From: Gemmatimonadales bacterium
GTDB lineage: Bacteria > Gemmatimonadota > Gemmatimonadetes > Gemmatimonadales > GWC2-71-9
NCBI GenBank assembly: GCA_041615815.1
Contig: JBFJCP010000035.1
Span: forward strand, 1-38,413
Direction of reading: 5' to 3'
Length of the DNA: 38,413 nucleotides
In this document: in pieces, positions 6,595-38,227 of the stretch
How the letters are laid out: each line of letters begins with the position of its first letter
Position numbering within the stretch: position 1 is the first letter of the stretch
Notes under the pieces: model-generated
Database searches by the model: none
Seen by the model: only the letters and a program-made list of their open reading frames with translations
What the model was told of the DNA's origin: nothing
Program-made: the position numbers and the translations under genes

Positions 6595-7767
6595 ATGCGT
6601 GTCGCCGTTCACGCCGTTTCCATCGCTTCCATCATCGTCCCGGGCATCCTTTGCGCTCAGGAATCGGCCCGCAGCCCGACCGCGGTGTTGGCTGTCGCGT
6701 CGTGGAGCGGGACGTTTTCCGCCACGTTCGCCGACACGACGACGTCGGACGGAGAGGTTCGCGTGCAATTCCGATCCGTCCAAGGGACGGTCCGCTTCAG
6801 TAAGCCACGACGTCGAGGAACAACAGCCGCGAGCTGGAGCGGTACGGGAGCGGGCGACTGGCGCGTCGACGATCGCATCACCACGCCCGTGCCCCGCGGA
6901 TCCGAGGTCACGCAGACGATGTCGGGGCAGGGCACGGCGCCGCTGGACGAGCGACGCACCTCGTTGCGAGTCGATACGGGTCGTCACACGTACGATCTGA
7001 CGCTCGCCCTCGAGCCATTCCAGGTGGATCTCGTCACCGAGGGCGGGACGCTGGACGAGCCGATGCGCACGCGCACGCGGCCGCCGCGGGGTGGTGGCCT
7101 CGCTGGCTCGGTCCGGGGCGCCGTGCTGCCTGCCACAGGACTGCTGCTCGAAGGGAATCAGACGCTGCAAGACGGGACCGTGCTGCGTTGGAGTTTCGCT
7201 CCTGCGGGAGGCGTCCAGACGGCCGAACATGCAGAACCGCCGCCGGCACCGGCGAAACAGCAAGAGGTGGATGGTCCACCGCCCGCGCCCCCCGCGGCTC
7301 CCGCTGAGTCGACCCTTCCGCAACTATCCATGAACCGACCAGGTCGCGGTGAGTCCGGCACGTCGTGGTTCGAGGATCGATGGGAGCGGTCGTACACCGT
7401 TGCCGTGGTCGAGGTGATCCCACCGGAACGCGAGAAAGACTTCAAAGGCCTCGATCACACGCTCGTGATCAAGGTCATGGGTGACGACGGCGGTTGGATC
7501 ACGATCGCGGAAGCGCCCGTGAAGCCCGGCCCCGTCTCGGGGATGGACGGGTGGCAGAAGGATCATCCGGTGCAGCTCAATCCCGATTACTTCGTGATCC
7601 GGTTGGTGAAATCGTTGACCGAGCCCATGGCCGCCCGCGGGATTCGCTTCGAGTTGCAGGGTGCCCGGGTGTTGGGTGGGGGGTGGACGTTCTGGGTCCG
7701 ATCGGCACCACAGCCGGACATGATCGGCGAAACCCGCTATGAGTGGAAGTACACACATGCTTGGTGA
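6595..7767 (+). CDS. Exported hypothetical protein: beta-rich module A + Pro-rich linker + possible discoidin/CBM-like C-terminal domain
   Basis: Signal-like MRVAVHAVSIASIIVPGILCA-QE from ATG 6595; PPPAPPAAPAE linker; SWFEDRWERSYTV...EPMAARGIRFEL resembles an F5/8C jelly-roll. The start could be 6505. Confidence 0.65.
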   Translation: MRVAVHAVSIASIIVPGILCAQESARSPTAVLAVASWSGTFSATFADTTTSDGEVRVQFRSVQGTVRFSKPRRRGTTAASWSGTGAGDWRVDDRITTPVPRGSEVTQTMSGQGTAPLDERRTSLRVDTGRHTYDLTLALEPFQVDLVTEGGTLDEPMRTRTRPPRGGGLAGSVRGAVLPATGLLLEGNQTLQDGTVLRWSFAPAGGVQTAEHAEPPPAPAKQQEVDGPPPAPPAAPAESTLPQLSMNRPGRGESGTSWFEDRWERSYTVAVVEVIPPEREKDFKGLDHTLVIKVMGDDGGWITIAEAPVKPGPVSGMDGWQKDHPVQLNPDYFVIRLVKSLTEPMAARGIRFELQGARVLGGGWTFWVRSAPQPDMIGETRYEWKYTHAW

Positions 7768-9277
7768 CGCTCGCCGAGCCACACGTTCTCCGCTGCGGCA
7801 CGGCGCAGCGTTGGCTTTGGCGTTGACCCTGTCGATCGCTGCGACGGCGATCGCCCAGGAGAACACGCCCAACATCGAAGGTTCTGGGACCTACCTGCCC
7901 GGCGACTACACGTTCTATTGCGCTACGTACCGGGATCCGCCTGACGCGCCGATGCTGGGTGTCGGAAGAGCCCCCAACGAGGGCGAGCGCGGCCGCCTCG
8001 TCAACGTCACGGTTGGTATCGAACGGTTGGAAGGAGAACGGGCCCGCCGCGTCGTAACCGTCCGCGACCTCGAAAACGAGGTGTGCCGTGCGAATCTGGT
8101 CGAGCCCGGCATTTACGAGGTCAGCAGCGAAACGAACATCAGCTCGTGGATCTGGGTGAAGAACCCCGACGCCAGTTCCGTGAACGTCACGCGAGTCGTT
8201 CGCCAACCACTCCCGCTCAAGTTCTTTCGCAGCGTCTACCGCATCCAGATCGGCGACGCGGAGATCGCGCCCCCACCCGAGCCTGACTGCGCCAATCCAT
8301 CACTCGAGATCGAGCACCCCAGGCCCGACACCCTCGTGGCGTTCGATCGCGGCGCGCCGGGCCGTCTCGAGATTCAGTTGGAGGCGATCGTGTTGCCCGA
8401 CGATTGTCCGGCAGAAGTCCAGTGGCAAGCAGACGACATCCGCGGATCCACCAAGACGTTTCTGTCGGCTGACGGGACCCAGTCGAACCAGGGGCAAACG
8501 CTGACGCTCGTGTACGAAGGCTTGCCGGAGCGTACCGACGCGTTTGGGCCCAAGACCATCACGGCCACCGTGGGAGGGGTCTCGAAACAGGTGGCGGTGC
8601 AAGTGTTTTTCGATCCGGATGCGACAAACCATGCCGGAGAGGGCCACAACCAGACGCCCAACTGGTTCCACTATTGGCTGCAGACCTCCGCAGGGCAGGA
8701 CAGGACGCTGAGCGAGGTCAAATACGACGACCCGTGCCAAAGAGAAGATGGTGTCAGCCACTTCGATGGGATGCAGAACCCCAACGCCATGGATGTCATC
8801 TTCGTTTGTGACGACGCGCGTATCCACCAGCAATTCGAGATTACGGGTCAGCGAACCTGGGGAATCGATACATACGCCGTGGTCATCATTCACGAGTGGA
8901 CGCACAAGCGTAATTTCGACGAGTGGTGGAGAGAGCTGATCACGGAGATGGCTCGCGACCCGGAGATCTGGAAAGACGGCAAATGGGATGTGGACCGATT
9001 CTTGGCGGCGACGGTCGGTTCCGTGGATTCGGATCAGGACGCCATCCCGAATCACTTCGAGCCGGGCATTCCCGCGAGCCGCGGTGGCCCTCTGGACTCG
9101 ACGAAGATCGATACGTACGGGTACGACACGACCGACGACGAGTACCTGGCCTTCAAGGCCCAAGAAGCTTGGCCTATCGGTTTTGCGGACGACGAAGACT
9201 GGTCGAGGTGCGGGAAGCAGTGGAGACAGAAGTATCCGAATGATTGCCCGGAGATCCCACCACCCAAGAAGAACTGA
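7757..9277 (+). CDS. Exported HEXXH zinc-metallopeptidase-like protein (module Y + module B)
   Basis: Signal peptide ending AIA-QE; HEWTH at 8891-8905; DSDQDAIP Ca-binding-like motif. Start overlaps the end of the upstream gene. Confidence 0.75.
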   Translation: MLGDARRATRSPLRHGAALALALTLSIAATAIAQENTPNIEGSGTYLPGDYTFYCATYRDPPDAPMLGVGRAPNEGERGRLVNVTVGIERLEGERARRVVTVRDLENEVCRANLVEPGIYEVSSETNISSWIWVKNPDASSVNVTRVVRQPLPLKFFRSVYRIQIGDAEIAPPPEPDCANPSLEIEHPRPDTLVAFDRGAPGRLEIQLEAIVLPDDCPAEVQWQADDIRGSTKTFLSADGTQSNQGQTLTLVYEGLPERTDAFGPKTITATVGGVSKQVAVQVFFDPDATNHAGEGHNQTPNWFHYWLQTSAGQDRTLSEVKYDDPCQREDGVSHFDGMQNPNAMDVIFVCDDARIHQQFEITGQRTWGIDTYAVVIIHEWTHKRNFDEWWRELITEMARDPEIWKDGKWDVDRFLAATVGSVDSDQDAIPNHFEPGIPASRGGPLDSTKIDTYGYDTTDDEYLAFKAQEAWPIGFADDEDWSRCGKQWRQKYPNDCPEIPPPKKN

Positions 9278-9363
9278 CGTCGAGCACGCATAGTCCGCCG
9301 GTCCGCGGCGCGGCGCGGCGCGTCCTACAGTGGCCACGCGACCGAGCTGTGTCGACCCCCGAG

Positions 9364-9610
9364 CCTGACGAGACGGCGCCGGCCACACCCCCGAGGCGCG
9401 TTCGTCGAGCATACGCCCCACGATCGTGGCGATCTCGGCCACTGCCGTCTGGGGCCGCTTGCCCGCGCGATGGACGCCACACACCGCTGTCGTGCACGAG
9501 TGATCGAGGGTGGGGCTCCAGCGCGTCGCACCCCTCTGGTCCTTGCCGTAGGTGAGGTAGGCGGAGAGGGTATCGAGACCCGTCCCCGGGCGCTCGCCGA
9601 TGAAGTGCAC
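9364..9610 (-). pseudogene. Orphan, diverged 3' end of the eutBC fusion gene
   Basis: Aligns without gaps to 11624-11870 with 27 mismatches in 247 nt by hand count. The TAG stop has become CAG. Confidence 0.9.
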
Positions 9611-11624: not shown

Positions 11625-13715
11625 CTAACGAGAGGGCGCCAGCGAAATGCCCGAGGTGCGCTGCTCGAGCATACGCTCCACGATCGTGACGATCTCGGCC
11701 ACTGCCGTCTGGGGCCGCTTGCCGGCGCGATGGATGCCACACACGGCCGTCGTGCACGAGTGATCCAGATTGGGGCTCCAGCGCCGCGCACCGTCCCGGT
11801 CCTTGCCGTAGGTGAGGTAGGCGGAGAGGGTATCGAGACCCGTCCCCGGGCGCTCGCCGATGAGGTGCACGATGGCGTCCGCGTCGACGAGTCCGCCCAC
11901 ATGGTAACCGGCGCGAACCCGTCCGTTCTCGATGACGACGTCCACCCCACCGACCGCAACACCTCGCACTGCGAGCGCCTGCCGCAGTGGTGGTAGTACG
12001 TGGCGCAGGTTCTCGTTCAATGCGTTGGCGTTGAGGCCATCCGACAACACCAGCTGCAGTGCCGGGCGTCGATCGGGGTACAGCGCGCGGAGGGCAGGCT
12101 GGTCGTCACCTCGTATTCGTTCGCCGGTGGAGGGGTGGTTGAGGTAGTCGTCCCGGTTCGTGGACTCGGTACGGACGCTCGCGAATCGGGGCGAGGTGGT
12201 CTCCAGCACCGCGGGCTCGACGCGCGCATACAGCGAGCGCCGCGCGTGCCGGTAGATGGCGTCCAGCCGCCGCCCTACGTCGGGTGGTGCCGAGTGGCCC
12301 GGCCCGTGGCCTCGACCGAGATCCCAGCCGCGATCGGCCAGTTCGTGAAGCTCTCGTTGCGCTTCCGATGCGAGCTCGGCGGCGGTCCGGCGATCGCCGC
12401 CCGCACGGTAGTATGCCGCGTAGAGCGATGCAACGTCCTCGGTGCGCGCGGAGTCTTCACCAACGCCGAGCCCGCGGAGCCGATCAGCCATCGGCGTCGC
12501 GATCCGCCGACCGGTGGCATGCCTGAGACGCGGATGTTGACGAAACGAGGTCGTGAGATACCCCAGCATGGGGTCGGCGTTGCCGGCCACGGCCATGAGG
12601 TACGCCGGTGCCGCCCGCGTTACGATCTCATCGGTGAGCGCTTCGAGGGTCGCCGGGTCGATTCCCATGTGGAAGGTGGCGCACACATCGAGGCCCATCG
12701 TGAGTCCGTGGAGCTTGGCCATCACGGCGTCTTCGAGGCAAGCGCGGAGTAGCTGCGCGGGACTTCTGAACACTTCGGGGCCGATGAAGCCCGCCACGTC
12801 GTTCACGATGGTCCAGGTGCCGGTGGTGTGCTGCATGGCGCGAGCGAGTCCGTACGTGCGTGCCTCGAGTGTAAGCATGTCCACGCCCATCGCGACGCCG
12901 TTGGTCACCTCGGAGCCCTGTCCGGTTTCGAAGTAGAGACCGCTGAATCCGTTGGCCAAGTCGAGCACGCCGTCGGCGTCGAGGCCGACCATGCTGCGAA
13001 GCGCGCGCGACGTGCCCGCCAGGCTCTGGAATCCGACGTCGATCCGCGTGTGTGCTCGCGCCGCGGTCTGCTTGACGATGTCGGACAGGACACAGAACCG
13101 CGTGGGCAGCTCGAGGCGGGTGACGATGCGCTCGAGCAGCTGCTCCAGCTGAATAATGGTCTCGACGTCGTTGGTGGCAGGGTTGATGCCCACGATGACG
13201 TCGCCGCAGCCGTAAGCGAGTCCCTCGAGCACAGAGAGGAGGATCTCCGTCTCCTCGTCGCCGGGGCTGTTGGGCTGGATCCGGGAGCCAAAATGCCCGG
13301 GCGCGCCGATCCGGTCTCCCGAGCCGGGCAGGGGATTGAACAGCTTCCCGGCCAGGGTCGAGAGGTCATCGTTTGTCATGGTCTTCGCCAGCGCCGCGAT
13401 CGCCTCGCTCGGGAGACCTGCGGCGTATCGGCTGGCCCAGTCGGCGCCGTGGGGGCCGAGCAGGATTTGCTTCACCTCCCCGATCGTGCGGTGCCGGACG
13501 TCGGCACGTTGGTCGTTGTCCGTGGCGCGCGCCAGCAGCTCGCTCACCCCGTCGTCGACGAACCGGGCGGGATCGAATTCGGCAATCGGCGTGCCCAGAA
13601 GCGCCCGTCGGGCTTCTTCGCGTGCGTGGGCGTCGTTCGTTCCGCCCACGAGACGGTCGCCCTCCTTGAACTCGCTGGCGAGCGTCATCGTGTGCTGCAG
13701 AGCGTCGGGAGGCAT
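11625..13715 (-). CDS. eutB: Ethanolamine ammonia-lyase, fused large (EutB) and small (EutC) subunits
   Basis: EutB motifs SRIQPNSP, GDVIVGINPA, YFETGQGSE, VAGFIGPE, ACLED, DPMLGY; EutC motifs RDDYLNHPSTG, SDGLNA, GRVRAG, LIGERPG, all in one 696-aa ORF. Confidence 0.9.
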   Translation of the reverse strand: MPPDALQHTMTLASEFKEGDRLVGGTNDAHAREEARRALLGTPIAEFDPARFVDDGVSELLARATDNDQRADVRHRTIGEVKQILLGPHGADWASRYAAGLPSEAIAALAKTMTNDDLSTLAGKLFNPLPGSGDRIGAPGHFGSRIQPNSPGDEETEILLSVLEGLAYGCGDVIVGINPATNDVETIIQLEQLLERIVTRLELPTRFCVLSDIVKQTAARAHTRIDVGFQSLAGTSRALRSMVGLDADGVLDLANGFSGLYFETGQGSEVTNGVAMGVDMLTLEARTYGLARAMQHTTGTWTIVNDVAGFIGPEVFRSPAQLLRACLEDAVMAKLHGLTMGLDVCATFHMGIDPATLEALTDEIVTRAAPAYLMAVAGNADPMLGYLTTSFRQHPRLRHATGRRIATPMADRLRGLGVGEDSARTEDVASLYAAYYRAGGDRRTAAELASEAQRELHELADRGWDLGRGHGPGHSAPPDVGRRLDAIYRHARRSLYARVEPAVLETTSPRFASVRTESTNRDDYLNHPSTGERIRGDDQPALRALYPDRRPALQLVLSDGLNANALNENLRHVLPPLRQALAVRGVAVGGVDVVIENGRVRAGYHVGGLVDADAIVHLIGERPGTGLDTLSAYLTYGKDRDGARRWSPNLDHSCTTAVCGIHRAGKRPQTAVAEIVTIVERMLEQRTSGISLAPSR

Positions 13716-33681: not shown

Positions 33682-34440
33682 TCACGGGTCGAGGACGCGG
33701 TACTCACCTTCCTCGGTCAACTCTACCGTGAGTCCGAGTTCTTCGAGGGCTTTCATTGCGGAGACGCGGACCGGGTAGAGCTCGGTGGCACCACCATCTA
33801 GGTTGTCCACGTCGACCAGGTACGTGTCGCGGGCAGCCTGCCGCAGGTCGGGAATGGCCTCGTGCGCCTCCAGCTCGCCGAGCAAGTAGGCAGCGTCAGA
33901 CCGCACGTCTCCAACGGTGGATGTGCGCAGTAACGCTTGCAGCTCCGGTATCGCATCCCGCTGCCCGGCGTAACCGAGGGCAAGGACGGCCCGGGCCCGA
34001 ACCTCGCCGGTCTGTTGGTTTACCGCCTGGCGAAGGGTCTCCAGCGCTTGCGGCGCGAGCTTACCCAATGCGCGGGTGTAGACGTAGCGCAACCACTCGG
34101 TGGTGGAGAGATAGGTCCCGCGCGGGGCGGGACCGAGGGTGGGCTGGTTGATCTCACGCTCGAGGGCATCGAGGAGCAGCGTGACCCGAGCGGGTGCCGG
34201 GATGTCCTGACGGTCACCGAGCTGCCACGCCGCGTCGAGACGCCGATTCCAATCTTGGTGTGCCAGAGACTGCTGGATTTGGACGGCGGGATCTTGACTG
34301 GTCTCCTCGGACGTCGTGCCCGGAACATCCTCCGATGTATCGCTGCCGCACCCCGCGGCGAAAACGAGACCGAAGAGCAACGCACCCAGATTGGCACTTG
34401 GAGCCCAGACGGTTCGGGATGACCTGTTCACAGAGATCAT
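33682..34440 (-). CDS. HEAT-repeat lipoprotein
   Basis: ATG 34440 overlaps the upstream TGA (ATGA); FAAG-C lipobox; repeats RRLDAAWQLG, VRARAVLALG, VRSDAAYLLGEL, VRVSAMKALEEL. Confidence 0.82.
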   Translation of the reverse strand: MISVNRSSRTVWAPSANLGALLFGLVFAAGCGSDTSEDVPGTTSEETSQDPAVQIQQSLAHQDWNRRLDAAWQLGDRQDIPAPARVTLLLDALEREINQPTLGPAPRGTYLSTTEWLRYVYTRALGKLAPQALETLRQAVNQQTGEVRARAVLALGYAGQRDAIPELQALLRTSTVGDVRSDAAYLLGELEAHEAIPDLRQAARDTYLVDVDNLDGGATELYPVRVSAMKALEELGLTVELTEEGEYRVLDP

Positions 34441-36074
34441 CTCGATGGGCGTCCGGTTGCTGCGATGCCGCACAGCGGCTCCTGGTTCTCGTTGCGCTGC
34501 ACGGGTTCCGTTCCGAACCGCTTTCCTGGCGCCGCCCAATCCTCCTCGTCGGCTGTGCCGCTTTGCCACAGGCCTTCGGCCAACCACGCGAGGTAGTGCT
34601 CGTCGGTCATTTTGCAGCGGTGGGTGTCCTGCCACTTCGGGTTCATCCCTAGAGACCGCTCGAGGCGATCGGGGATCTTGTCTCGGTCGCGGTCCACCGT
34701 TCTGCGGTCCCTCCGGTATTCGGGCGTCCAGCATGTCTTGTGAACACACGGATCTTCGTACTTCGGCCCGCCCGTGCGCGTGGTCCATTCCTGGTCGAAG
34801 TTTCGCCACCACTGCTCGTAGTGTTTTTTGTGTTCCCACTCGTGCAAAACCGTCGTGGCATAGGTATCGATACCATCTGTGAACTCTCCCGTCACCGAAT
34901 TCCATCCGGAGCCCGTGACGGGATCACAGACGTTGATATGGGAGTCGCCGGGAACGTAGAAGCCGAATGTCTTCTTCGTCGGATCGTCGTCTTGGCACTC
35001 CTGCGGTGGGGAGTAATGGACCTGGCTGCGGGACAGCCCCCGTCCAGCAGCCGTCTGCCGCCAGTAGTAGAACCAGTTGGGAACGTCCTCGTCGTCCGGA
35101 TTGAAGGTCCCTTTCAGCGCGAAGAAGAATCGCACCGGCATTTCAGCCGTGACCTCCTCACTGCACATGCTGAGGCTCGCGGTCACGGGTTCCTCTACCG
35201 CAAACGCGCCGTTGTCTTCTGGCAGATTCGTATACGTTACCTTCACATACTGGCCCCGCCCGCTCTCCGGGTCCGTCGTCAGCCACACCCCGGGAATCTC
35301 GGGGAACGTCCAGACGACCCTCGCGGAATCTTGCTTGGAGACGTTGTTGGCGATGGCGAGCTCTTCGGCCCGTCCTTCTGAGCCGTCTTCGTCGAAGACC
35401 ATCGCGTCCCACCCGGTGGGATCGATTGCCAACGCCGGTGCGTCTCCGCCGGTGCAGGGGGACAGACTCCAGCTGATCGAGCCGCTTCGTGCGGCAGCCA
35501 TCGGGCTATAGCTCCGCTCGAGGTTCTGCGAGCCGGTCAGGGCACCCACGGAGGGCGGAAGCGGGATGTCTTCAGCCCGTACCTGTACCTCCTCGAGCAA
35601 CAGCTCCGCGCTCCCCGATTGGGAGAAGCCCCCTGCGGTGAACGTGGCGGTCCCGGTGATACCCTCCCCGGCGTCGAGCAGGGAAACCCGATAGGTCTCC
35701 TCATCCAAGTTCATGAACAGCTCCACCGATCCGCCGGGCGATCGGCCGGATCCGCTCGAGGTCGTGCCTCCACCCTCCATCGTGGCCTCGCTCTCGAACG
35801 TTGCTGAAAAGGTCACGTTCTCTCCGATCCAGATCACCCGCCGCGGACGGTCCCGCACTTCGGCTAATTGCAGGGTCACCGATCCGTTCGCCGACGCTGT
35901 CAGGCGGGCTTTCATGGCCGATACGTTTCCGCCTTCAGTGACTTCCACCCGGATGGTCCCCGACCACTCGGTGATCCCCGTCCAATCGTCTGCATCCCGA
36001 TCCTGCTTCGGCCACCATGAGGCCCCGGCGGTCAGCACCGCGGCAGCGACGACGGCAAAGAATGGCGCTCTCAT
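34437..36074 (-). CDS. Exported HEXXH zinc-metallopeptidase-like protein (module A + module B)
   Basis: Signal-like MRAPFFAVVAAAVLTAGAS from ATG 36074; HEWEH at 34830-34844; PNWFYYWRQT; DRDRDKIPD. Confidence 0.78.
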   Translation of the reverse strand: MRAPFFAVVAAAVLTAGASWWPKQDRDADDWTGITEWSGTIRVEVTEGGNVSAMKARLTASANGSVTLQLAEVRDRPRRVIWIGENVTFSATFESEATMEGGGTTSSGSGRSPGGSVELFMNLDEETYRVSLLDAGEGITGTATFTAGGFSQSGSAELLLEEVQVRAEDIPLPPSVGALTGSQNLERSYSPMAAARSGSISWSLSPCTGGDAPALAIDPTGWDAMVFDEDGSEGRAEELAIANNVSKQDSARVVWTFPEIPGVWLTTDPESGRGQYVKVTYTNLPEDNGAFAVEEPVTASLSMCSEEVTAEMPVRFFFALKGTFNPDDEDVPNWFYYWRQTAAGRGLSRSQVHYSPPQECQDDDPTKKTFGFYVPGDSHINVCDPVTGSGWNSVTGEFTDGIDTYATTVLHEWEHKKHYEQWWRNFDQEWTTRTGGPKYEDPCVHKTCWTPEYRRDRRTVDRDRDKIPDRLERSLGMNPKWQDTHRCKMTDEHYLAWLAEGLWQSGTADEEDWAAPGKRFGTEPVQRNENQEPLCGIAATGRPSR

Positions 36075-36151
36075 GCTGCTGGTCCCCAGTTCAGGTTGCT
36101 TCATTGAATATCGATGGTGATGAGCGTCTTGTACGCGTGTTCTTCCAGCCT

Positions 36152-36349
36152 CTAAGCAATCCACCCACTCGTCCCAGTGAGACTCCCGGGGTCGTCGTAG
36201 GAGAGGGCGACGGAGCCTGGGTACACCTCAGCGACCCGCCGATCCTGATCGCTAGTTTCAGAACCACCGAGCTCCGCCGCCTCCCCACCTGCACCTGCCA
36301 TCACCAACGTGAGGGTGGCGAGAGTAGTCATCGTGGCAGGCACCTTCAA
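36152..36349 (-). CDS. Small exported peptide or truncated gene (65 aa)
   Basis: AAGGAG RBS before a TTG start; hydrophobic N-terminus MKVPATMTTLATLTLVMAGAGGEA; fills the gap within a co-directional cluster. Confidence 0.5.
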   Translation of the reverse strand: MKVPATMTTLATLTLVMAGAGGEAAELGGSETSDQDRRVAEVYPGSVALSYDDPGSLTGTSGWIA

Positions 36350-36380: not shown

Positions 36381-36893
36381 TTACCCCCGTTCCAGCCGCC
36401 GGCGGAGGCTGAGCGGCCGCATGTCCGTCCAGACCTCCTCGATATACTCGGACGCTTCCCCGAACGTCCCGACCTTTCCCGTGGGTGTCAGTTCTTCGGG
36501 GAACGTCTCCTCCGCGGGCCAGAGCATGTATCCATAGTATCCGGACGGGATGCCGTCGTTCTCCCGGTCGTCTCCCGTCCTCTCTTTCCGCACCAGCACC
36601 TGGTATTTGATCGCATCGCGTTCGATGCCTCGTTGCGCCATTCGCGTGCGGAGGCTGCGGGGACGCATGTCGGTCCAGACCTCTTCGATGTAGTCCATCG
36701 CTTGTCCCAGCCCGCCGGTCCTGCCGGTGGCCTTCCATCCCGTCGGCACTTGCTCGTCGGCCACCCAGACGGCGTACTGCTCCTCCGGGTTGACGATGAC
36801 CTGGTAGCGGATCCGCTCTTGGGCTTGCGTGGTGCCGCTGAGGGCGATGGACGAGAGCAGGACCGCTGCGGTGCGAAGCGTGGGGAAAGACAT
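36381..36893 (-). CDS. Signal-peptide-bearing protein with two tandem MbtH-like domains
   Basis: GAGGAG RBS; signal ending TQA-QE; YQVIVNPEEQYAVW...PTGW...YIEEVWTDMRPRSL, then YQVLV...LWP...YIEEVWTDMRPLSL. Confidence 0.88.
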   Translation of the reverse strand: MSFPTLRTAAVLLSSIALSGTTQAQERIRYQVIVNPEEQYAVWVADEQVPTGWKATGRTGGLGQAMDYIEEVWTDMRPRSLRTRMAQRGIERDAIKYQVLVRKERTGDDRENDGIPSGYYGYMLWPAEETFPEELTPTGKVGTFGEASEYIEEVWTDMRPLSLRRRLERG

Positions 36894-36925
36894 GAAAGCT
36901 CCTCATCAAACCGTTGGTGTAGCGA

Positions 36926-38227
36926 TTAGCGCCCCGCGCAGACCAACTCGTCGGATCGTCCGTTGTTGTCCTCGCGGGCTTCTGTCACGACGCCGTTGGG
37001 ATCGATGGTAACCTGGACGGCCGTGGTGTCGGAGACGGTGATCGCCTCGAACGTGTGGGCCCGCTGCCCCCCCGCTGGCCCGAGCGCTTTTTCGGGGTCG
37101 AGGGACTCGAGAGTCACGGAGTGCGCGGGCTCTTCGTCGCGCGAGACGCTCAGGATCGCGGCCTCCCACGCCTCCGCGGGGAGCGTCGCGGGCCCACGGT
37201 TCACGACTTCCGCCGTCACCCGGCACTCTGCGTCGAGCCCCAATCGGGATACGGTCAAGTCGGGCAGCCGGTTGTACGCCACTTCCTGGAGGATTCTTCT
37301 CGTCAGATTCTCCTTCACGCTCCACGTCAGGCCGCCGTCAGTGGACCGCGCGACGGTCCCCCGCCAGCCGACGACGACCAGCACACCGTCTCTGCCCTCG
37401 GTCGCTCCGGTCAAACGCTGTGTGGTGCCGGACTCGACGGCCGTCCAGGTCTCGCCGCCGTCCTCGGAGCGTGCAATCGTGCCATCCCAGCCCGCCGCGA
37501 CGATCGTTCCCGATGCGCTGGTGGTCACACCCTCGAAGGTGTTGCGGATTCCGGTGCGCACCACCGTCCAGGTCGCCCCGCCATCGGACGAATACGCGGC
37601 TCCCCCCAACACGCCTACCGCCACCCACCGGTCGTCACCGAGGGCCGTCACGGCGTTCACGTGGGCGCCCATTCGCGTCGTCGTGGCAGTCCACGTCTCG
37701 CCGTTGTCACTGGAGTGAATGATCAAGCCTTGGGCACCACCCCCCACCCAGGTTCCCTCCCGGTCGGTTGCCACGGAATAGAGGGCGTCCGTGGTTCCCG
37801 AAACGCGGGCCTCCCAGCTGGTGCCACCATCGGTGGACAGGAGCACGCTCCCCTGACCACCCACCACGACGAAGCGTCCGTCGTCATGCCATGCGATGCT
37901 TTGCAGGTTGTCCTCGCTGCCCGACGCCATGGTCTCCCAGCTGGCTCCCCCGTCGGTCGAGCGGAGGATCACCCCCCCTGATCCCACTGCCACGAAGCGA
38001 CCCCGGTTGTCGGACACCACGCCGTTGATATAGGAGCTGATTGGCGTGACTGCTGTCCAGGATTCTCCGTCATCCGTACTGTAGAGTACGATGCCGCTTC
38101 TGCCGACGGCGACATAGTCCGTCCCTCCAGCGGATTCCGCCTGCTGCGCCTCCGAGGAGCCCGTTGGAACGAGCAGTACGACTCCCAGACCGAAAAGCCT
38201 CGCGGCCCACCGCAATAGCTGCTGCAT
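36926..38227 (-). CDS. Exported BNR/Asp-box (Ycf48-like) 7-repeat beta-propeller + CARDB domain
   Basis: Signal ending SEA-QQ; seven S(T/S/E)DxGxxW repeats; LPDLTV...VVNRG...IDPNGVVTEAREDNN. Confidence 0.9.
   Translation of the reverse strand: MQQLLRWAARLFGLGVVLLVPTGSSEAQQAESAGGTDYVAVGRSGIVLYSTDDGESWTAVTPISSYINGVVSDNRGRFVAVGSGGVILRSTDGGASWETMASGSEDNLQSIAWHDDGRFVVVGGQGSVLLSTDGGTSWEARVSGTTDALYSVATDREGTWVGGGAQGLIIHSSDNGETWTATTTRMGAHVNAVTALGDDRWVAVGVLGGAAYSSDGGATWTVVRTGIRNTFEGVTTSASGTIVAAGWDGTIARSEDGGETWTAVESGTTQRLTGATEGRDGVLVVVGWRGTVARSTDGGLTWSVKENLTRRILQEVAYNRLPDLTVSRLGLDAECRVTAEVVNRGPATLPAEAWEAAILSVSRDEEPAHSVTLESLDPEKALGPAGGQRAHTFEAITVSDTTAVQVTIDPNGVVTEAREDNNGRSDELVCAGR

Follow-up and report, generated by a model that had tools for sequence, protein, structure and literature searches.

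The stretch of DNA analysed here (the window) is an entire contig, C35, of 38,413 nt from a Gemmatimonadales genome of 4.19 Mb that is 95.7% complete. Close to its end, which lies 1.5 kb upstream of the gene, it encodes a 170-aa protein, hereafter P0002, with a predicted signal peptide and two units related to MbtH-like proteins (MLPs), the partners of NRPS adenylation domains (A domains). The features of the locus are:

36926..38227, minus strand: upstream co-oriented gene for a predicted secreted BNR-repeat propeller with CARDB, 32 nt before the P0002 ATG
36899..36904, minus strand: Shine-Dalgarno-like GAGGAG, 5 nt ahead of the P0002 ATG
36381..36893, minus strand: P0002 gene, signal peptide plus tandem MLP, an ORF of 170 aa reading from ATG
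36822..36893, minus strand: predicted Sec/SPI signal peptide, residues 1-24, by eye, by hydropathy and by family-wide pattern
36633..36821, minus strand: MLP unit 1, residues 25-87, from Pfam, identity to PA2412, residue mapping and the structural model
36387..36608, minus strand: MLP unit 2, residues 96-169, from the family profile, the strands and helices of the model and residue mapping
36534..36587, minus strand: insertion in unit 2, residues 103-120, replacing NxExQ in the beta1-beta2 hairpin, of low confidence (pLDDT 54-67)
33682..36349, minus strand: downstream co-oriented ORFs for an approximately 60-aa protein with a hydrophobic N-terminus, an approximately 545-aa protein with HEXXH and a HEAT-repeat protein

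The P0002 gene is real. It is the second gene in a co-oriented run whose products are mostly predicted to be secreted, its GC3 (0.82) is in line with the window's other genes, and its two units appear in the DNA as a 93-nt repeat, 72% identical and spaced 246 nt. Contigs from three public runs (two studies; the assembly may derive from one of them) span the gene as two pieces that overlap, no difference being listed within the gene, and the signal peptide and most of unit 1 lie on one piece. We found no promoter-like site, and terminator-like sites were present only at chance level. The BNR/CARDB, 60-aa, HEXXH and HEAT-repeat neighbors are not conserved at related loci.

Two further observations concern the window at large. 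The HEXXH protein (34437-36074, minus strand) has a paralog at 7739-9277 on the plus strand; both are predicted to be secreted and share 35% identity over about 300 aa, neither has a Pfam match over cut-off, a broken third copy lies on contig C18, and the pair was not found in four relatives. In addition, the frame that begins at 9610 (8300-9610, minus strand) repeats in its first codons the C-terminal end of an ethanolamine ammonia-lyase-like ORF (11625-13715, minus strand), suggesting a partial duplication.

A preliminary description of this locus had read P0002 as a 170-aa protein with a signal peptide and two MLP units, and the ORF, Pfam, a family-unit profile and a structural model all agree with that reading, the signal being a prediction. 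Pfam PF03621 matched residues 25-71 at 60.8 bits, against a gathering cut-off of 27, and did not report unit 2; the family-unit profile recovered both unit 1 (E 2.3e-25) and unit 2 (E 2.2e-17) and had no other match in the host genome, making P0002 its only MLP. In the residue numbering of PA2412/TxtH, used throughout, unit 1 keeps the equivalents of N17, E19, Q21, W25, W35 and W55, with the tryptophan trio present as W43, W53 and W73 of P0002, and is changed at S23 (to Ala), P26 (to Val) and L48 (to Met), reading AVWV where MLPs have SxWP. Unit 2 retains W25, W55 and WTDMRPLS and is without N17, E19, Q21, S23, G34, W35 and L48; an insertion takes the place of NxExQ, and PEEL stands for PxGW. 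YIEEVWTDMRPxSL is present in both units; the preliminary description was accurate on this motif, on the three tryptophans and AVWV of unit 1, and on the insertion and PEEL of unit 2. Position S23 is Ala or Met in P0002, K/R44 and L48 are absent from both units, and neither unit carries the full signature NxExQxSxWP-x5-PxGW-x12-L-x6-WTDxRP as given in the accessible part of PMC6792134. A shorter insertion occupies the same place of unit 2 in P0003, the nearest relative of P0002; erosion of unit 2 is specific to these two proteins and not a family trait.

An AlphaFold2 model of P0002, built on an 86-row alignment (mean pLDDT 82.8), has the MLP strand and helix pattern twice over, each time as a three-stranded sheet, a packed helix and a C-terminal helix. 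All five Foldseek matches to this model at E<=0.001 are MLPs, and the best match of a VIA structure search was the MLP of 9UP2 (Z 6.9, rmsd 5.0, 61 aligned). NCBIfam has no family for P0002, P0010 or P0133, and the ESM Atlas gave no usable match for P0002.

Judged by eye and by a hydropathy heuristic, the N-terminus of P0002 has the layout of a Sec/SPI signal peptide, with Arg7 in the n-region, a hydrophobic stretch at 9-18 (best 10-residue hydropathy 2.39) and a T-Q-A|Q cleavage site after residue 24 that places Thr22 and Ala24 at -3 and -1. Such N-termini are widespread among the homologs of P0002. A homolog search returned 1033 proteins, and in the best 120 of these (P0002 included), from which the family counts are taken, two WTDxRP motifs and hence two units were present in 120/120 and a hydrophobic N-terminus, by the same heuristic, in 107, so P0002 is no isolated case. 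The 13 listed tandems without one include L014, which was confirmed on DNA; upstream of this tandem MLP (L014:6965-7351) an out-of-frame stretch could be a decayed leader.

Across 86 aligned homologs the signal region averages 19% identity, compared to 59-60% for the units. Behind the h-region, 87 of 106 family proteins have an [AGSC]-Q site, versus 16% of control windows, and Gln follows the predicted cleavage site at 11/11 loci from Bacteroidota and Rhodothermales and at 0/4 loci of other groups. This Gln(+1) pattern matches the Q-rule for Bacteroidetes signal peptides, as stated in the accessible part of PMC5837995; Gln is also the commonest +1 residue in the genome that hosts P0002 (34 of 100 heuristic signal peptides). 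The signals thus diverge in sequence yet follow each host's habit, and are most simply explained as functional. We also count as support for export a Cx4C pair found in 26/214 tandem units (23 proteins, probably of few lineages) and in 0/89 single MLPs, together with the Cx3-4C pair of the sister subfamily described below. A disulfide between the units was considered because C47 is present in both units of 106/120 tandems, in neither unit of 10 and in one unit of 4, but it also occurs in 98% of single MLPs and the units may change together; P0002 itself has no Cys. Going by these sequence patterns, mature P0002 is very probably exported.

The named genomes, scanned by a two-unit DNA pattern, yielded 18 loci in 17 genomes. 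A single tandem ORF is present at 16/18 (Bacteroidota 9, Rhodothermales 3, Acidobacteriota 3 and one 72%-GC contig labelled Enterobacteriaceae), with a hydrophobic N-terminus in 15 of the 16; L023 and L025, with two separate genes each, were left out of the tandem counts. Scoring part of the candidates per genome, we found no further tandem members in 300 other Flavobacteriaceae and one tandem fragment, at a contig edge, in 250 Saprospiraceae; among 400 genomes of the host phylum, likewise with part of the candidates scored, there was one sister-type gene, and five others had ordinary single MLPs. The tandem family is rare in each sampled group. A tree of 84 units, computed from 58 columns by a quick method, had 56/81 forks open; tandem units clustered (7 changes versus 27.7 when shuffled) and fusions fell among NRPS-linked MLPs. 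For L081 and L092, both entered in the tree as NRPS-linked, a later locus check confirmed the label. The 2448-aa repeat protein P0265, returned as a family match, was judged a false positive.

Such a distribution could be taken to mean that the tandems are drifting remnants, in which a small stable domain captured a signal peptide and has little function: their occurrence is very patchy, their context is not conserved, unit 2 of P0002 is eroded and tandems lacking a signal peptide exist. More than 100 clusters at 90% identity from several phyla nevertheless keep both units in frame; their WTDxRP is invariant and the units are 59-60% identical, in contrast to the diverging linkers and signals, and we consider drift the least probable of the explanations weighed here.

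Known MLPs use a pocket between W25 and W35 to accommodate an Ala or Pro residue of their partner (PMC10510592, accessible part), modelling places K/R44 and L48 at the MLP/A-domain interface (PMC7593251, accessible part), and the signature residues matter for A-domain solubility (PMC6792134, accessible part). In 214 tandem units (107 proteins) most of the signature is kept, with N17, E19 and Q21 at 95-96%, W35 at 97%, W25 at 86% and S23 at 78%; WTDxRP stands at 100% but served as the alignment anchor. Of the interface residues, in contrast, K/R44 is kept in 41/210 and L48 in 38/210 tandem units (105 proteins, slightly different filter), compared to 87/89 and 84/89 in single MLPs without a hydrophobic N-terminus and 24/27 and 26/27 in NRPS-fused MLPs. 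The single-MLP control consists of the top matches of the family profile, which does not favor K/R44 or L48. Acidobacterial tandems retain both residues, and S23 as well. The central pocket is thus preserved and the rim contacts specific to A domains are loosened, as would fit a ligand that is smaller or of another kind.

The preliminary description had proposed that the conserved C-terminal motif may be the functional surface, but the family does not single this motif out. Family-wide, the N-terminal part, NHEEQYSIW..PxGW, is retained in both units as well, and a sister subfamily of 27 proteins (among them L086:1495-1932 on the minus strand, P0398-P0423 and P0425) has two truncated NHEEQYSIW units and no WTDxRP. 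From these sequences, the C-terminal WTDxRP is dispensable in one derived branch. Sister proteins have a hydrophobic N-terminus in 25/27 and a C-terminal Cx3-4C pair in 27/27; in G341 the sister-type gene lies just upstream of a carbamoyltransferase gene and a GDSL-like gene. Since both exported subfamilies share N-H-E-E-Q as their core and no dedicated partner gene was found, the NHEEQ hairpin, or WTDMRP, might bind a metal ion or small metabolite and make the proteins a periplasmic solute or metal sponge. We regard this as improbable, given that N-H-E-E-Q is equally conserved in cytoplasmic MLPs, that in P0002 the His is replaced by Pro in unit 1 and the hairpin is missing from unit 2, that no transporter is linked to these genes, and that, as described in the accessible part of PMC10510592, the MLP pocket is too shallow to serve as an active site.

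As the preliminary description had stated, the window contains no adenylation enzyme, and tblastn with the host genome's NRPS proteins found no NRPS in it. Taken as an argument, the lack of a nearby NRPS proves little, because orphan MLPs act in trans (PMC7593251, accessible part) and NRPSs are present on other contigs of the host genome, which has 10 A domains above the TIGR01733 cut-off, all outside the window, and 12 condensation matches on contigs C1, C16 and C49. That MLPs work in trans (PMC10510592; PMC7593251, accessible parts of both) makes these NRPSs the main fact against the preliminary description. The host has two uncharacterised NRPS clusters (G000 C16:1-10932, C1:1-2445 and C49:1238-17544) that are shared with G001 at 59-68% identity. 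We found no MLP gene in the two clusters and no end overlap between contig C35 and an NRPS contig.

MLP genes usually lie in NRPS clusters, with orphans known, and neither the window nor the 41 related loci conform to this. At 18 genome loci (186 kb) and 23 metagenome loci (96 kb), many of the latter short and one of them a duplicate of a genome locus, there was no NRPS match; in a control, 6/14 single-MLP loci had an NRPS match within 1.5 kb. No neighbor family recurred in more than four tandem loci, and the largest groups (4 loci each), considered as conserved partner genes, were rejected as common secreted families. Among the 16 carrier genomes, mostly MAGs of unstated completeness with loci mostly on short contigs, 8 had no condensation match, 6 no A domain over the TIGR01733 cut-off and 5 neither; among these five are an isolate, Aureitalea sp. 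L0-47, and a genome that has a contig of 4.5 Mb. A domains occurred in 10/16 carriers, compared to 78/251 genomes in one background family unmatched for taxa and genome size.

Two side observations also concern MLP genes in genomes without an A domain over the cut-off. G841, from the Saprospiraceae sample and with one contig of more than 6 Mb, has an ordinary single cytoplasmic MLP (L108), for which an NRPS-independent cytoplasmic role is possible. G074 (Acidimicrobiia), with none over the TIGR01733 cut-off, has two adjacent separate MLP genes at each of two loci (L029:2-1010 and L045:1197-1716), one pair following a probable seryl-tRNA synthetase region.

The presence of A domains in 10/16 carriers and in the host, together with P0002 being the sole host MLP, counts against a role outside nonribosomal peptide synthesis and leads to a conventional alternative, in which P0002 is an orphan MLP that serves the host NRPSs in trans from the cytoplasm, its N-terminus being non-functional or its export leaky. 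The host has two NRPS clusters and no MLP besides P0002, the orphan MXAN_3118 acts in trans (PMC7593251, accessible part), and unit 1 has its three tryptophans, while the S23A change merely lowers activity in TxtH (PMC6792134, accessible part). The signal-peptide pattern across phyla, with its host-specific +1 residue, argues otherwise, as do the 6/16 carriers without A domains and the loss of K/R44 and L48 from both units of P0002. Relatives also point away from service in trans: each of the four large host NRPSs has an orthologue, at 59-68% identity, in G001 (same genus, 91% complete), where neither Pfam nor the family alignment found an MLP, and condensation domains occur in 9/60 relatives with an MLP in 0/60. 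We therefore think service in trans unlikely, and P0002 probably independent of the host NRPSs. The non-NRPS extracytoplasmic role put forward in the preliminary description thus stands in part: export is likely, and the decoupling from NRPSs is upheld by gene position, partly by genome content and by the loss of K/R44 and L48, whereas the ligand is proposed by analogy.

MLPs also appear on other exported proteins. Our fusion survey listed 120 of 134 longer homologs. Among those listed, a C-terminal MLP was found on 17 aligned lipoprotein-type proteins that carry an unnamed domain twice (15/17 with a lipobox pattern), on 5 lipoprotein-type pentapeptide-repeat proteins, on 5 proteins with a signal peptide and DUF4262 (+Tdi1-C) and on one DUF4344 peptidase; single MLPs behind signal peptides also exist. 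Proteins of the lipoprotein family (alignment A2; P0129, P0133, P0137, P0140, P0146, P0154, P0168, P0171 and others) are about 350-380 aa long, and their repeated domain is beta-rich and has no Pfam entry; a fold search with it gave middling beta-barrel matches (Z <=7.1), and the ESM Atlas only hypothetical clusters under 0.9. This repeated domain was rejected as an MLP partner, since it was not found in the host genome and in 18 genomes A2 matched the MLP part only. Elsewhere, MLP units, up to several and some degenerate, are fused to the phage tail-collar domain PF07484 (P0122, P0134, P0186, P0258), and an MLP follows Tdi1-C (PF08906) in proteins that carry either a membrane anchor at the N-terminus or DUF4262 together with a signal peptide (P0125, P0127, P0136, P0138, P0148, P0167 and P0170; P0151, P0169, P0172, P0192 and P0196).

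K/R44, L48 and S23 are all kept in these fusions (lipoprotein 17/17, pentapeptide 5/5, DUF4262 5/5), whose MLPs are 66-79% identical to NRPS-linked MLPs, and in the exported fusions the MLP part has 69% identity versus 41% for the other domains. Retention of K/R44, L48 and S23 in the fusions and the acidobacterial tandems counts against the reading of a new ligand, which leaves it unexplained. Exported MLPs might instead be decoys or modulators that act on the NRPSs (or further adenylating enzymes) of foreign cells, encountered in vesicles, lysates or prey. Both units retain most of the MLP signature family-wide, the interface is fully intact in exported fusions whose other domains drift, the patchy spread resembles that of accessory conflict genes (0/300 other Flavobacteriaceae), and fusions to DUF4262/Tdi1-C and tail-collar domains occur. 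A domains are cytoplasmic, however, no secretion or delivery genes are linked to the tandems, C-terminal sorting domains are lacking, and K/R44 and L48 are mostly lost in tandem units, leaving a decoy function doubtful.

The explanation we prefer, with a probability of about 0.5, is by analogy that P0002 would be a periplasmic, non-enzymatic peptide-binding module. The protein would be exported by Sec and cleaved before Gln25, and its two MLP units would fold in the periplasm. Unit 1 would use its W43/W53 pocket to grip a short Ala- or Pro-bearing peptide segment of the envelope in place of an A domain. Two units would add avidity; in P0002 the pocket is complete in unit 1 alone, which would leave unit 2 a structural or secondary role. 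The lack of a dedicated partner gene across phyla favors a widely available ligand. By the same analogy, this could tentatively be exposed loops of exported proteins, with P0002 as an adaptor or holding chaperone, or, with less likelihood, peptidoglycan stem peptides. More broadly, it is conceivable, at somewhat less than even odds, that the MbtH fold is a general peptide-gripping module repeatedly moved to the envelope, as twin secreted units, as the disulfide-capped sister and as tags on lipoproteins, giving it a second, NRPS-independent function, or else that exported MLPs would be the first proteins to target the NRPSs of other cells.

MLPs serve to mine and engineer NRPS pathways, and their mode of action is still described as unclear in the accessible part of PMC10510592. 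An exported, NRPS-independent branch, if true, would mean that the fold has another ligand and would supply natural variants that separate the pocket residues from A-domain-specific contacts; the NCBI label 'MbtH family NRPS accessory protein' on these proteins would then not mark a biosynthetic cluster. Aureitalea sp. L0-47, which is cultured and carries a family member but has no NRPS-type A domain, makes this testable. Title, abstract and phrase searches found no exported or tandem MLPs in the literature covered, which mostly excludes subscription journals.

LysM and SPOR domains are small envelope-binding domains that occur alone, in tandem behind a signal peptide, or at the C-terminus of unrelated exported proteins. 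The likeness to the MLPs described here is one of domain architecture, and we found no relation in sequence or fold. Among solved MLPs, PA2412 from the P. aeruginosa pyoverdine pathway (PDB 2PST, 2GPF, 5JA2) is nearest to P0002: each unit shares the three strands and two helices, unit 1 is about 50-52% identical over 59-62 residues and has the three tryptophans, and WTDMRP is present in both units. MLPs are, however, cytoplasmic single domains of about 70 aa, standing beside NRPSs or fused to NRPS enzymes, whereas P0002 has 170 aa, two units, a predicted signal peptide and no NRPS neighbor, and has lost K/R44 and L48 and, in unit 2, W35. Like the orphan MXAN_3118 of Myxococcus xanthus (PMC7593251, PMC6792134), P0002 is encoded away from the NRPS clusters of an NRPS-bearing genome; unlike P0002, MXAN_3118 consists of one domain, which binds to seven NRPSs in trans, and the accessible parts of these papers mention neither a signal peptide nor a duplication. 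SlgN1, ObiF1 and LtxB resemble P0002 in that the MLP forms one module of a larger protein, which in LtxB is an enzyme other than an NRPS, but all three belong to NRPS pathways and none is described as exported or duplicated in the accessible part of PMC10510592. With the fold of an MLP, and departing from the full signature, the size and the location of one, P0002 is best filed as an MLP-derived variant.
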